Shown: in pieces, positions 56,171 to 59,828 of the stretch
How positions within the stretch are numbered: the first letter of the stretch is position 1
Layout of the letters: every line of letters starts with the position of its first letter
From: an uncultured Chloroflexia bacterium
GTDB taxonomy: Bacteria; Chloroflexota; Dehalococcoidia; DSTF01; JALHUB01
Assembly (NCBI GenBank): GCA_963835655.1
Contig: CAWIGJ010000003.1
Coordinates: forward strand, 868,372 to 932,371
Direction of reading: 5' to 3'
DNA length: 64,000 nt
The notes under the pieces: generated by a model
The model's input: the letters and a program-made list of their open reading frames with translations, nothing else
Databases searched by the model: none
What the model was told of the DNA's origin: nothing
Position numbers and translations under genes: made by a program

Positions 56171-57115
56171 ATGAATGAGCAAGCTAACCGAGAAATGAAG
56201 TTCGTGGAGAACTTCATTGAGTTTGGGGCGCTGCATCGCGCACGCGTCGCCTGGGGCCTGCGCGAACAGTTCAGGCGGACTCCGAAGGAACAGGCGAACT
56301 TGCGCGCGTCGCTGGCACTGGATCTCGTCCAGACATACTTGAACACCTTCGAGGACATCGCGATCTGGCTGCATGTCCTGCAGAAGTGGACCCGACGCGA
56401 AGGCAACGTCACAGAACTCCTCGACAGAGAGCGGGCCCTCGGTCAACGACACCACGTCAGCCATCTGCAACGACTCAGCGTGCCTGAGGGTGGTCACACC
56501 GGAGAGAGCCTCGGACGCCGGCTTGGTCTTCCGTACAAGGATCGGGACAACTGGGAGGCGGTGCACCCCTCTAGCCGAGACCGACTGCGGCGGGACATCG
56601 ATGAGCTGGCCAGGCTGTCTAACGCTCTCTTCTCAGGGGCGCAGAGTTGGACAAGGTCGGGCGACTTGGGTCTATGGAGGGCATGGAACAAGACTAAACA
56701 CGGCATATTCGTCACTCTGAGGCGAAGCAGGACAGGAGCAGGGAACATCCTCACAATCCACGTCAACCCCGACGATCTCGGGGAACGCTATGAGCTGCCC
56801 GTGCAGGACCGACACTTAGTGAGGCTGTTGGTGAGGACCTTCATGGGTTGCGTCTTTCTGGGGCGCGCGCTGGACGTTGTGTATCAGCTTCGGTTTCAGC
56901 GCGTGCCTGAGGTCAGTTGGATGGCCCACGCTGCTGCCATGAATATGACAGAGGTTAGACGAGAAGACGTCGAGGAGGTGCTCACCGCCTCGCATGTTCA
57001 GAGGCAGTCCTGGATGCTCGGCTCTGGCCCTCACGATCGGCCGTATCAGCTTGAGTCCACGTTCGCCCTCAAGTTGGCCTCCGGGTGGCGGACAAGTGAA
57101 ACCGACACCGACTAG
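56171..57115 (+). CDS. Hypothetical helical protein, possibly HEPN-like
   Basis: Long ORF with no recognised family; contains WRAWNKTKHG. Confidence 0.6.
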   Translation: MNEQANREMKFVENFIEFGALHRARVAWGLREQFRRTPKEQANLRASLALDLVQTYLNTFEDIAIWLHVLQKWTRREGNVTELLDRERALGQRHHVSHLQRLSVPEGGHTGESLGRRLGLPYKDRDNWEAVHPSSRDRLRRDIDELARLSNALFSGAQSWTRSGDLGLWRAWNKTKHGIFVTLRRSRTGAGNILTIHVNPDDLGERYELPVQDRHLVRLLVRTFMGCVFLGRALDVVYQLRFQRVPEVSWMAHAAAMNMTEVRREDVEEVLTASHVQRQSWMLGSGPHDRPYQLESTFALKLASGWRTSETDTD

Positions 57116-57295
57116 GCGGACTAGGCCATTCGCCGGTATCGCCCCCCTGGTACTCGATGTCCCTTGACTTCGTCGCCCACTAATGCAATTTAGTGTCATA
57201 TTGTCGGGGGCGGATAGGATCGAAGCATCTGCCTCTCACAGACGCTTGAGAGGCTCGCCGTACGCTGGATCAAAGACTGAAGTGAAATGGGGACC

Positions 57296-57366
57296 CTCTG
57301 CCTATCACCCAGAAGGTCGCAGGCCTGCCTGCCGGTAGGCAGGTTCGAGCCCTGCATCGCCCACCA
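57296..57366 (+). pseudogene. 3' tRNA relic (Val-type acceptor) with a 20-nt palindromic insertion in the T-arm
   Basis: Removing 57324-57343 gives ...AGAAGGTC-GCAGG-TTCGAGC-CCTGC-ATCGCCC-A-CCA. Confidence 0.75.
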
Positions 57367-57426
57367 AGACCGCTGCCGAGCGGCGCTTCTCGCCTTGGCT
57401 AATCACAAGAGTGTTTGGCACGACCA

Positions 57427-57455
57427 TTGACAGGCTGTTAACGTAAGAGTAGTTT
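57427..57455 (+). promoter_or_regulatory. sigma70 promoter of the leader/GYD unit
   Basis: TTGACA-N17-TAGTTT. Confidence 0.65.
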
Positions 57456-57482
57456 GTCAGCGCACACACAAAGGAACCGCCG

Positions 57483-57521
57483 GTGATTGCACCACCGACG
57501 GCCCCAGTTGCCGAGCCCTGA
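57483..57521 (+). CDS. Putative attenuator leader peptide MIAPPTAPVAEP
   Basis: AAAGGA-N7-GTG, 12 codons with 4 Pro, stop inside hairpin strand 1. Confidence 0.5.
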   Translation: MIAPPTAPVAEP

Positions 57522-57556
57522 CGCAGCCAGGGTCGGCCTGCTTACACTACCATGGC

Positions 57557-57592
57557 AGGCCCCGACCGCGGAAGGCTCGGGGCCTTCTGTTT
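57557..57592 (+). terminator. Intrinsic terminator in the GYD leader (attenuator 3:4 hairpin)
   Basis: AGGCCCCGA/TCGGGGCCT stem followed by TCTGTTT; overlaps a competing antiterminator. Confidence 0.65.
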
Positions 57593-57673
57593 GAAGGCGC
57601 AGACTGAGAAAGGGGCCCAGCGCAAGTGCTTCGCTAGCCAGGGCAAAGTAAGTAGGAAACAAGGAGGTTCCCC

Positions 57674-57997
57674 ATGCCAAATTACCTCGTTCAGGCCGCC
57701 TACACACCACAGGCGTTGGCCGCCATGGTCAAGAGCCCCCAGGACCGACTTGAGCCCACTCGCCAGGTGGTCGAGAGGCTCGGGGGCAAGATGCTGTCTA
57801 TGTACATGTCTTTCGGTGAATACGATATCGCGGGTGTGGGGGAACTGCCGGACAACGTTTCCGCTGCTGCGTTCTCCCTAGCCATCTCCGCAGGCGGGGC
57901 AGTTAGGGCAGTAAAGACCACGCCTCTCATGACTATGCAGGAAAGCATCGAGGCTTTCCGCAAGGCGGGTCAAGCTGGGTATCGGCCGCCAGCCTAG
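57674..57997 (+). CDS. GYD domain-containing protein
   Basis: MPNYL....YT..A...M...P..R......E.LGG......GEYD...V.E.PD...TTPL.T..E pattern; SD AAGGAGG. Confidence 0.88.
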   Translation: MPNYLVQAAYTPQALAAMVKSPQDRLEPTRQVVERLGGKMLSMYMSFGEYDIAGVGELPDNVSAAAFSLAISAGGAVRAVKTTPLMTMQESIEAFRKAGQAGYRPPA

Positions 57998-58105
57998 GCG
58001 AGTCCTTTCGCCGCTGGGCTTCGTTCTCGGCTAGGAGGGGGCTGGTGGCCATACTCAAGCCAGCTCCGGCAGTGGTCCCCAAGGCACACAAGGAGGGAGC
58101 AGCAC

Positions 58106-58405
58106 ATGCTATTCGTGGGTATCGGGACGCCAGTACGCGGCCTAACTTGGCGGCAGACACAGGAATACGCAAAACTGTACCGCCAGTGGACACCCCCTCC
58201 CGGATATGACGTAAAGGCGCTGTACTGGGGCTCAGAAGGCAGCGTTGTCACGGTTGTCGATGTCCAGACATCAGCCGCCGGCTACGAGGCAGGGCTGCCT
58301 TGGACGGACATGGAGTGGAAGGTCATACCGGTTGTCGAGGCGGCCCAAGCGGTGCAAATCCAAGACAAGGTTACTGCCTGGGCACAGAAGATTCTGGGGA
58401 GTTAG
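58106..58405 (+). CDS. DUF3303-like small ferredoxin-fold protein
   Basis: W.PP.G.......W...G......D......PW.D.EW.VIPV pattern. Confidence 0.65.
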   Translation: MLFVGIGTPVRGLTWRQTQEYAKLYRQWTPPPGYDVKALYWGSEGSVVTVVDVQTSAAGYEAGLPWTDMEWKVIPVVEAAQAVQIQDKVTAWAQKILGS

Positions 58406-58490
58406 CGACAAGTCTCTGTATTGCGGGGGCCACCGCCTTCTTCCAGGTCGGGTCTCTGGGAGGAGAAGTGTTTTACAGAAAGGGGAGACA

Positions 58491-59828
58491 ATGAAAATCG
58501 GACGCTCTACGCCGCTCATTCTCCTGCTGGTTGCAGCACTATCAGTCTCCGCCCTGTTCGTCATCTCCTGCGGGTCTAAGCAGGAGGCTGGCGGTGGGGG
58601 AACGACGACCGGGGACACAACGGGCGTCACGGACACGGAGATCAAAATCGGCAGCCTTCTGCCTCTTTCCGGCGCTGCCTCGCCGTGGGGGATCCCGTTC
58701 GCACAGGGGATGAAGGCCTACTTCGACTATATAAACGACCAGGGCGGCATTTGGGGTCGCAAGATTAACCTGATCGTTGGCGACAGCCAGTACAGCGGGC
58801 CAATTGCCACGGAAGCAGCCAAACAGATGATCGATCAGCAGCAGGTGTTCGCCTTCGACGGGAACCTCGGGACGGAGGTGGAAGCCGCTGTCAGGGACAT
58901 GATCGACGCTGACAACATTCCCGACTTTAACATCCTCAGCGGCTCGACCCAATTTGTAGAACCGTTTCAGAAGAACCGTTTCACCGCCATGGTTCCCTAC
59001 ACAGAGGAGGCGAACATAATCGCAGGCTATCTTGAGAAGACATACGCGGGCAAGAAGGTAGGTATCCTTGCCCAGAACGACGAGTACGGAAAAGAGGGTG
59101 GAGCCGCCACCGCCCAGGCGCTCAAGGACTCCGGCGCCGTCACGGATGTCTCCACCGAGTGGTACGAAGCCAGCGCGACAGATGTGACTTCCCAGATGCA
59201 GCGCCTGAAGGGAGACAACGTCGACGTCGTCGTGTTGTGGGGCGGGCCGACGCAGGCCGCGAGCATGATGAAGACCGTCCGCGAGACCCTTAGCTGGGAC
59301 GTCCCGCTGATGGTCGATGAGGCCGCCAGCAGCGGGGATCTCGCAGTGCTTGCGGGACCGAAAAACATGGATGGTGTCGTGGGCGTGGCCATCACGGAGA
59401 ACACCGACCTCAACACTAATGACGTCCCGGGCATCGTCTCCCGAAGAGAGATCTTCCAGAAGTACGCGCCCTCAGGCTCGACCTGGAACGCCATGGCCTT
59501 CGCCGGCTACTACACCGCTGAGGGCTTCGCCGCTATCGTGAAGCAGAACGGGCCGAATCTCACCCGCGAGTCCTTCATCGCGACAGCGGAGAACGTCTGC
59601 AAGTGGAAAACGGACATCTCCCTGGTTCCGGAGAGCACCAGCCCGACCGACCACAAGTTCATCGAGGCCGAGGTCTTGACAAAGGCATCGATTGACCCGA
59701 ACGATCCCACGAAGGTGAATTTCACGCCCTTCGGCGACCCGGTCAGCTACGAATCCACGACGGACTGCAAAGTCCCGAAGGCACCGGCGGGCGCCAAGAA
59801 CCAGCCGGGCCCCGATATCGGACAGTAA
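58491..59828 (+). CDS. Branched-chain amino acid-type ABC substrate-binding lipoprotein (paralog A)
   Basis: ISC lipobox, GVTDTEIKIG..LPLSG, GGI.GRKI, QNDEYGK and GPNLTRE motifs. Confidence 0.9.
   Translation: MKIGRSTPLILLLVAALSVSALFVISCGSKQEAGGGGTTTGDTTGVTDTEIKIGSLLPLSGAASPWGIPFAQGMKAYFDYINDQGGIWGRKINLIVGDSQYSGPIATEAAKQMIDQQQVFAFDGNLGTEVEAAVRDMIDADNIPDFNILSGSTQFVEPFQKNRFTAMVPYTEEANIIAGYLEKTYAGKKVGILAQNDEYGKEGGAATAQALKDSGAVTDVSTEWYEASATDVTSQMQRLKGDNVDVVVLWGGPTQAASMMKTVRETLSWDVPLMVDEAASSGDLAVLAGPKNMDGVVGVAITENTDLNTNDVPGIVSRREIFQKYAPSGSTWNAMAFAGYYTAEGFAAIVKQNGPNLTRESFIATAENVCKWKTDISLVPESTSPTDHKFIEAEVLTKASIDPNDPTKVNFTPFGDPVSYESTTDCKVPKAPAGAKNQPGPDIGQ

Follow-up and report, generated by a model that had tools for sequence, protein, structure and literature searches.

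In the tnaC leader of Escherichia coli, translation termination dependent on release factor 2 (RF2) stalls at Pro24-UGA, and tnaC blocks Rho. Pausing at termination after a C-terminal proline is also described for YbeL, and when a ribosome is paused at a Pro-stop its 3' border lies about 12 nucleotides (nt) beyond the stop codon (PMC3834316). In Salmonella the leader open reading frames (ORFs) mgtL and mgtP contain proline codons, and their translation alters the choice of stem-loops controlling mgtA and mgtCBR (PMC3641672, PMC6460261). Here we describe a regulatory element of about 170 bases at positions 57427-57593 (plus strand) in a 64,000-nt stretch of DNA from an uncultured Chloroflexia bacterium (GenBank assembly GCA_963835655.1, contig CAWIGJ010000003.1, positions 868,372 to 932,371; this whole stretch is called the window and all positions refer to it). 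The element, hereafter the unit, consists of a promoter, a 12-codon ORF and a putatively switchable intrinsic terminator, and is followed by genes for a GYD-domain protein and a DUF3303 protein. A previous sequence-only reading had proposed a trp-like attenuator of the first and probably also the second of these genes, which might thereby respond to proline, elongation factor P (EF-P) or release-factor stress. As judged from sequence comparison, the conservation of the unit shows it to be real and maintained beyond chance, and we lean, at somewhat better than even chances, towards a translation-coupled attenuator as its mechanism.

Related loci were collected by a metagenome scan with the GYD protein, which gave at least 35 loci, followed by blastn with the window and alignments. 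The unit recurred at 85-90% identity in at least 14 distinct full-length copies from metagenomes and from Dehalococcoidia/Chloroflexia metagenome-assembled genomes (MAGs), and the 14 copies make up alignment A4. About 30 further partial variants came from public assemblies. For the ORF region, variants were taken from Logan contigs of 20 metagenome runs and three runs labelled metatranscriptomic, and were rebuilt with the help of difference tables and clipped ends. Scanning species-representative genomes for the pattern added at least three true copies, two in Dehalococcoidia MAGs (L037 and L039) and one in a "Chloroflexia" MAG chromosome (L040), and three other matches lay within genes and were due to chance. 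In L037 and L039, the most distant copies, homology starts exactly at the -35 box, and the minimal unit therefore extends from the promoter to the U tract (57427-57593). A covariance model (R1) built from nine copies matched only the known copies among about 245 kb of fetched DNA, with the highest score for the window copy, and no copies besides the homologous sites were found in the window or the fetched loci. Rfam 15 gave no relevant match at E up to 1 for 56500-58600, and for five related loci only tRNA and rRNA at E up to 0.1. A known RNA family or riboswitch was rejected on the lack of an Rfam match and the variability of the loops. No GYD leader, and no case of leader-peptide attenuation in Chloroflexi, was described in the literature searched.

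The promoter, Shine-Dalgarno (SD) sequence, ORF and three hairpins named in the sequence-only reading were all found where it had placed them. The sigma-70-type promoter TTGACA-N17-TAGTTT (57427-57455) has its -35 box at 57427-57432, identical in all copies, and its -10 box at 57450-57455, which reads TAGTTT, TAGTCT or TACTTT in the alignments. It was missed by a consensus scan because TAGTTT agrees with TATAAT at only 3/6 positions. The promoter region shows dyad symmetry in the window (57428-57458), with ACAGGCTGT over the -35 box and TGACA ... TGTCA bracketing the spacer. The promoter spacer is kept in the close copies L001-L005, L010, L040 and L043 and altered in L037 and L039, and the dyad is a possible operator. 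One short contig from a metatranscriptomic-labelled run carried a variant copy and began near the predicted transcript start, a weak indication since DNA carry-over is possible. Between promoter and terminator lies a structured leader of about 130 nt. Its SD-like sequence AAAGGA (57470-57475), of which AAGG is retained in 13/14 copies, precedes by 7 nt the GTG of the 12-codon ORF (57483-57521; peptide MIAPPTAPVAEP), which ends with TGA at 57519-57521. Hairpin 0 (57473-57505), not mentioned in the sequence-only reading, engages the SD and the GTG in pairing with codons 4-8 and their surroundings. It is followed by strands 1 and 2, GCCGAGCCCTG/CAGGGTCGGC, which form hairpin 1:2 (57510-57537) with the stop codon at the loop edge, by the antiterminator pairing of strands 2 and 3 (57530-57566), and by the intrinsic terminator 3:4 (57558-57593) with its stem at 57558-57584 and the U-rich tail TTCTGTTTG at 57585-57593.

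Folding of 57455-57600 with RNAfold gave a minimum-energy structure of -65 kcal/mol that contained hairpins 0, 1:2 and 3:4 (z = -2.6; 3/200 shuffles were as stable), which bore out the two hairpins proposed earlier and added the third. Among the 14 copies, the terminator 3:4 was 95.7% paired. Six of its ten pairs vary, each on one side only and through G.U, and the tail is U-rich throughout although its letters differ; stem energies ranged from -18.6 to -22.8 kcal/mol. Given that variation passes only through G.U pairs, it is the plus-strand RNA helix that appears to be under selection, and by this evidence the terminator is selected as plus-strand RNA. The complement of hairpin 0 on the minus strand also looks like a terminator, with a 15-pair helix including G.U pairs followed by TTTGTGTGTG. 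A minus-strand terminator at 57505-57473 was rejected, as there is no minus-strand gene to end and 3:4 tolerates plus-strand G.U only; the resemblance is taken to be a by-product of hairpin 0.

The pairing of strands 2 and 3 that competes with the terminator is 90-94% paired overall with one or two compensatory pairs, and its register is ambiguous. In the register first proposed (57532-57566) the copies are 90% paired. The pair 57536/57562 occurs in this register as G-C, A-U and G.U, which gave one compensatory pair in a 9-copy count, and in the 14-copy count no pair is changed on both sides. RNAalifold proposed a nested fold in which a pairing of strands 1 and 4 encloses 2:3 in another register (90.9% paired), with two G-C to A-U compensations, at 57531/57561 and 57536/57556. 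The covariation score of the nested fold together with hairpin 0 was equalled by 1/500 shuffles, a result that is suggestive only because related sequences can beat shuffles without any structure. At -12 to -21 kcal/mol, 2:3 is of comparable stability to 3:4. Taken together, this suggests that a competing 2:3 pairing is conserved among the aligned copies. Hairpin 1:2 fared less well. It is 90% paired, 5/10 pairs are broken by substitutions in some copies with none compensated, and the CCCTG/CAGGG core alone is invariant, which makes its base the least conserved helix. Thus, of the three mutually exclusive hairpins originally proposed, 3:4 is maintained and 2:3 appears to be, whereas the base of 1:2 has the least support. 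Throughout the leader the stems are the conserved parts and the loops and linkers the variable ones, and no aptamer-like core with invariant unpaired nucleotides was seen.

The ORF keeps the same 12-codon frame, from GTG to the same TGA, in 12/14 full-length copies, and the roughly 30 partial variants are mostly gap-free over it. Conservation of the promoter, the short ORF, the terminator and the competing pairing was thus found in the relatives, where the sequence-only reading had suggested that it be sought. The peptides of the intact copies (MIAPPTAPVAEP, MIAPPTVPVAEP, MIAAPAAPDAEP, MKRPPAASVTEP, MTQPPTAPRTEP, MTQSPTAPRTEP and MTQPPTAARTEP) are rich in proline, alanine and threonine and show no codon run cognate to a controlled pathway. 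Between copies, codon 4 varies among Pro, Ala and Ser and codon 8 among Pro, Ser, Ala and Gln, and E11 is replaced by Lys in some variants. With no conserved Pro-Pro, and with Ala or Ser as the fourth codon of many copies, the proposed proline or EF-P signal found no comparative support. What is invariant in 14/14 full-length copies is the final CCC-TGA, with TGA changed to CGA in a minority of assembly variants. In six variant contigs GCG or GCA stands in place of the GTG, and the hairpin-0 loop carries ATG or TTG-ATG in frame: at 57486-88 X5 has ATG-ATG, X2 ATG-GCC, X12 ATG-GTG and X13 ATG-GTG and ATG-TCG, and X25 has TTG-ATG at 57486-91. The retention of an ATG amid a diverged loop argues for a need for a start codon, with the qualification that the contigs lacking GTG may be a single clade.

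We infer from this arrangement that the leader ORF is translated and that the ribosome affects the fold. Transcription of the downstream gene would have to pass the terminator at about 57590. Without a ribosome, strand 4 would be taken up just before the U tract by strand 3, or by strand 1 if the fold is nested, and transcription would stop; both ribosome-free folds indeed have strand 4 paired immediately before the U tract. Once on the last codons, in the slow termination context Pro-UGA-C, a ribosome would cover strand 1. From the border of about 12 nt beyond the stop codon, the covered region would end at about 57533 and most of strand 2 would be free. Because the stop codon is located at the end of strand 1, strand 2 would stay uncovered when the ribosome has reached the stop, unlike in trpL, and the geometry allows for the earlier suggestion that a ribosome at the end of the ORF can free strand 2. 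With strand 1 covered, 2:3 would stay paired, strand 4 would have no partner and RNA polymerase would read on. Hairpin 0 would set the frequency at which the mini-ORF is translated by gating initiation. When the region covered by a ribosome at the stop was forced open, the window copy and L043 folded as 2:3 without 3:4. The Pro-UGA-C context fits a dwell-time device, a fit that is confounded with RNA pairing.

Several observations weigh against this mechanism, and some of them favour its main competitor, an RNA-only cis leader. Here the choice between terminator and antiterminator would be made by a protein, an RNA or a physical signal that acts in trans on hairpin 0 or on the long hairpin, and the ORF would have arisen by chance within a GC-rich, CCN-rich stem. 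In the remaining copies the ribosome-masked folds still had the terminator at minimum energy, and any switch there would therefore be kinetic. Hairpin 0, 95.5% of whose alignment cells are paired in the 14 copies, is conserved and shows a single compensatory pair: in L048, G-C is changed to C-G at 57474/57504 (G17->C, C47->G), which preserves the hairpin and weakens the SD. It folds with -14.6 kcal/mol in the window and with -32.5 kcal/mol in L010, where it forms a perfect 13-bp helix. As modelled, hairpin 0 buries both SD and GTG, and a stability such as that in L010 should nearly abolish initiation. The single-stranded 5' segment CGCACACAYAAAGG is conserved more than an SD requires, as would be expected of an RNA-only leader.

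The ORF itself is also broken in places. One-nucleotide deletions occur at 57491 (L002, X4, X15) and at 57507/8 (L005, L039, X2, X13, X15), and TGA is changed to CGA at 57519 in X2, X9, X12, X13 and X15. The short ORF proposed earlier is thus intact in most full-length copies but frameshifted or without its stop in at least five lineages, and the indels fall at unpaired positions, as would be predicted for a non-coding RNA. The variable sites of the ORF (about seven first-, three second- and four third-position) show no third-position excess when distant copies are included. The conserved codons P5, E11, P12 and the stop all lie within RNA stems, so that constraints on peptide and RNA are inseparable, Pro12-UGA being part of strand 1. 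Finally, none of the genes found downstream of the unit (GYD, SnoaL-like or subtilase) has a link to proline or to any amino acid.

Against an RNA-only leader stand the freely varying loops, without an aptamer-like core or an Rfam match, the in-frame ATG retained within a variable loop of the subfamily lacking GTG, and the frame and length kept in 12/14 full-length copies; a linked gene that might encode its regulator was seen in none of the unit's contexts. We therefore regard such a leader as possible but doubtful. As to the broken ORFs under a translation-coupled attenuator, the GTG frame of the frameshifted copies is open through the terminator, and in L002 it ends at a TGA in the U tract. 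It is a matter of speculation that a logic in which translation means read-through could survive in these copies.

The genes that follow the unit identify its regular partner. In the window the locus can be divided into module A (57368-57593; promoter, leader and terminator), which lies 5' of GYD in L001-L004, and module B (57608-58437; GYD 5' untranslated region (UTR), GYD and DUF3303), whose homology to related loci stops at 58437. Module B occurs without module A in L005-L009, L011, L015, L042 and L044. In L010, module A lies 1.1 kb 5' of GYD and directly before another gene, the unit ending 36 nt ahead of a gene for a 341-aa SnoaL-like-domain protein that has an N-terminal signal-like and a C-terminal anchor-like segment. 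L037 has the unit before a truncated copy of the SnoaL-like gene, and L039 before a subtilase gene. When homologues of the SnoaL-like protein were looked up, 4/4 contig look-ups gave the unit, with R1 detecting it in all ten loci (L045-L054), which comprise five distinct unit sequences in different neighbourhoods, each 28-30 nt before the SnoaL-like start. The position of the unit before the SnoaL-like gene in L010 and in the four look-ups makes it a cis-acting leader with this gene as its regular partner. The SnoaL-like family (L010 1347-2372, P0122-P0192) comprises proteins of about 340-360 aa with an N-terminal hydrophobic segment and the unit consistently 5', and its C-terminal tail "LPTWWY...hydrophobic...RRRW" resembles a sorting or anchor signal.

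The proposal that the unit is an attenuator of GYD as such was accordingly abandoned, since GYD-DUF3303 has other upstream regions in the leader-less loci and the unit precedes other genes. One of these other regions (L005 353-644, L007 ~2200-2440, L042 ~560-790) is a different conserved leader of about 290 nt 5' of GYD, in loci without the unit; it has a long-range pairing GGCGGGGCC ... GGACCCCGCC followed by CCTGTTCGC and no Rfam match, and may be a second, unrelated structured GYD leader. The unit precedes GYD only in islets adjoining tRNA-Val. The window copy ends 82 nt short of GYD, and a scan of the window found no promoter-like site between the terminator and GYD, so that GYD there probably depends on read-through. 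The junction at 57597-57612 resembles both the ribosome-binding-site region of the SnoaL-like gene and the segment 5' of GYD in L010, and the leader in the window was probably fused to GYD-DUF3303 through deletion of a SnoaL-like gene, as far as the sequences compared indicate.

This history raises a further alternative for the window copy, namely that it is a leftover promoter with a leaky terminator, brought to GYD by the deletion of the SnoaL-like gene and giving constitutive low expression without regulation. A junction that resembles both parents is what a deletion between similar segments predicts, GYD carries other upstream regions elsewhere, and the locus is a patchwork of tRNA relics. 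The fused form, however, is itself conserved, being kept with intact ORF and stems in L001, L003/L004, L040 and L043 at 87-88% identity, and it is the window copy that scores best against R1; we consider a mere leftover improbable. That the unit is an independent gene for a trans-acting small RNA which happens to lie before other genes is very improbable: its own strong promoter and terminator around about 130 nt of hairpins, the conserved single-stranded 5' end and its movement as a whole between contexts would suit such a gene, but the unit invariably has the orientation of the gene that follows 28-82 nt downstream, the approximately 30 nt, including an SD, that separate the U tract from the start codon in SnoaL-type loci leave no room for a separate promoter of the SnoaL-like gene, and the association with this gene held in 4/4 independent look-ups.

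The tRNA surroundings of the window copy were characterized further. Upstream of the unit lies a relic of the 3' half of tRNA-Val(TAC), from the anticodon loop to CCA (57306-57366, plus strand), with a 20-nt insert in the T-arm. By blastn, positions 37-54 of the tRNA-Val in L003 correspond to 57306-57323 and positions 50-77 to 57339-57366, both at 100% identity. The insert (57324-57343) is a 20-nt palindrome, and the relic is preceded in 57207-57366 by about 100 nt starting GGGGGCGGATAGG that could base-pair to the 3' acceptor strand. Neither ARAGORN nor Rfam called a tRNA or tmRNA at 57207-57366. A tmRNA or odd tRNA at 57207-57368 was rejected, given these empty searches and the blastn assignment to a tRNA-Val 3'-half relic, which lies outside the switch. 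A role of the unit's terminator in ending an upstream tRNA transcript was ruled out by the conserved promoter between them.

A tRNA-Val(TAC) gene, or the 3' half of one, lies immediately before the unit in L001-L004, L040 and L043. In L003 a second copy of the final 45 nt of tRNA-Val is present 1.35 kb downstream, so that the two copies enclose leader, GYD and DUF3303. Direct repeats of these 3' 45 nt at 1.35-1.9 kb were observed in L003 (479-1901) and also in L001, L004, L040 and L043, and in L043 the end of the preceding islet abuts the next tRNA half. By their layout the tRNA-Val loci look like tandem small att-flanked islets with no integrase in view, and from its context the relic at 57306-57366 may be an islet boundary or an att-like repeat. 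The first 555 nt of L003 contain the end of an rRNA operon (23S 3' end, tRNA-Met, 5S rRNA and terminator), after which come a separate promoter, tRNA-Val and the leader unit. The GYD-DUF3303 cassette (57608-58437, with a sharp right edge at 58437) was seen beside different tRNAs, Pro(CGG), Ala(CGC), Arg(CCT) and Val(TAC), at loci such as L007 1646-2500, L010 715-1311 and L015 1480-1556, and L010 has a truncated 5' half resembling tRNA-Arg(CCT) at about 875-915.

Some features of the window lie outside the minimal unit. The spacer 5' of the promoter (57368-57426, plus strand), with a small hairpin CCGCT-GCCG-AGCGG, is near-invariant in L001-L005, L010, L040, L043, L051 and L045, and it is missing 5' of the unit in L037, L039, L047 and L048, which places it outside. 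Downstream, the conserved GYD 5' UTR (57608-57673) includes the SD AAGGAGG and is common to the leader-less loci L005-L009, L042 and L044. The GYD gene (57674-57997, 107 aa; Pfam PF08734, E = 3.8e-24), for which the homologue search gave 1567 homologues, is followed by the second gene of the cassette, DUF3303 (58106-58405, 99 aa; Pfam PF11746, E = 1e-7), both on the plus strand, and by a terminator-like site at 58437-58465. For neither protein was a related solved structure found by sequence.

Returning to the translation-coupled attenuator, the unit appears to be a self-contained, portable regulatory unit with a strong promoter. A broader proposal, which we put forward tentatively and hold to be rather unlikely as a whole, is that of a mobile "translation-gauge" switch: a hairpin-gated mini-ORF in which dwell at Pro-UGA-C, the poorest context for termination, would reflect RF2 activity or general translation capacity and would set read-through, on a cassette that has been moved before SnoaL-like, GYD-DUF3303 and subtilase genes in Dehalococcoidia-like Chloroflexota, including the integrase-less tRNA-Val islets. 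If translation-coupled attenuation is correct, leader-ORF attenuation would extend beyond amino-acid operons to genes for exported proteins and proteins of unknown function in a poorly studied phylum. The presence or dwell of a ribosome at Pro-UGA would then lead to read-through, in contrast to the starvation for a single amino acid in classical attenuators, and the switch would travel as a cassette with its own promoter. It would also offer a first way into the regulation of the uncharacterised GYD, DUF3303 and SnoaL-like genes. Should the leader act as RNA only, it would still represent a conserved leader family not described before and suitable for inclusion in RNA family libraries.

Compared with known attenuators, the unit appears to be an undescribed leader that differs in its portability, its non-biosynthetic and mostly exported cargo, the position of its stop codon and its buried initiation site. 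With trpL, hisL and pheL of E. coli it shares a short ORF close to the promoter and equipped with an SD, a set of four RNA segments whose pairings exclude one another, and an intrinsic terminator before the gene, and the ORF overlaps segment 1, so that the position of the ribosome would decide the fold. Unlike these leaders it has no pathway-cognate codon run and its genes are not biosynthetic; its stop codon is placed where segment 1 ends, for which "translated means on" rather than "stalled at hungry codons means on" would hold; and a hairpin hides its SD and start codon, in a unit that is portable between unrelated genes. A short leader ORF containing proline codons, translation of which would affect the stem-loop formed, is common to the unit and to mgtL and mgtP, whereas the unit is without conserved consecutive prolines, has different cargo and ends in an intrinsic terminator. 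The likeness to tnaC and YbeL lies in the last sense codon, Pro, followed by UGA, which is near-invariant in the unit, and in a ribosome lingering at the stop as the putative antiterminating state. In contrast to tnaC, the peptide of 10-12 residues, with its variable N-terminal half, is too short to reach through the exit tunnel and sense a ligand there, and the terminator to be overcome is an intrinsic hairpin with a U tract and not Rho.

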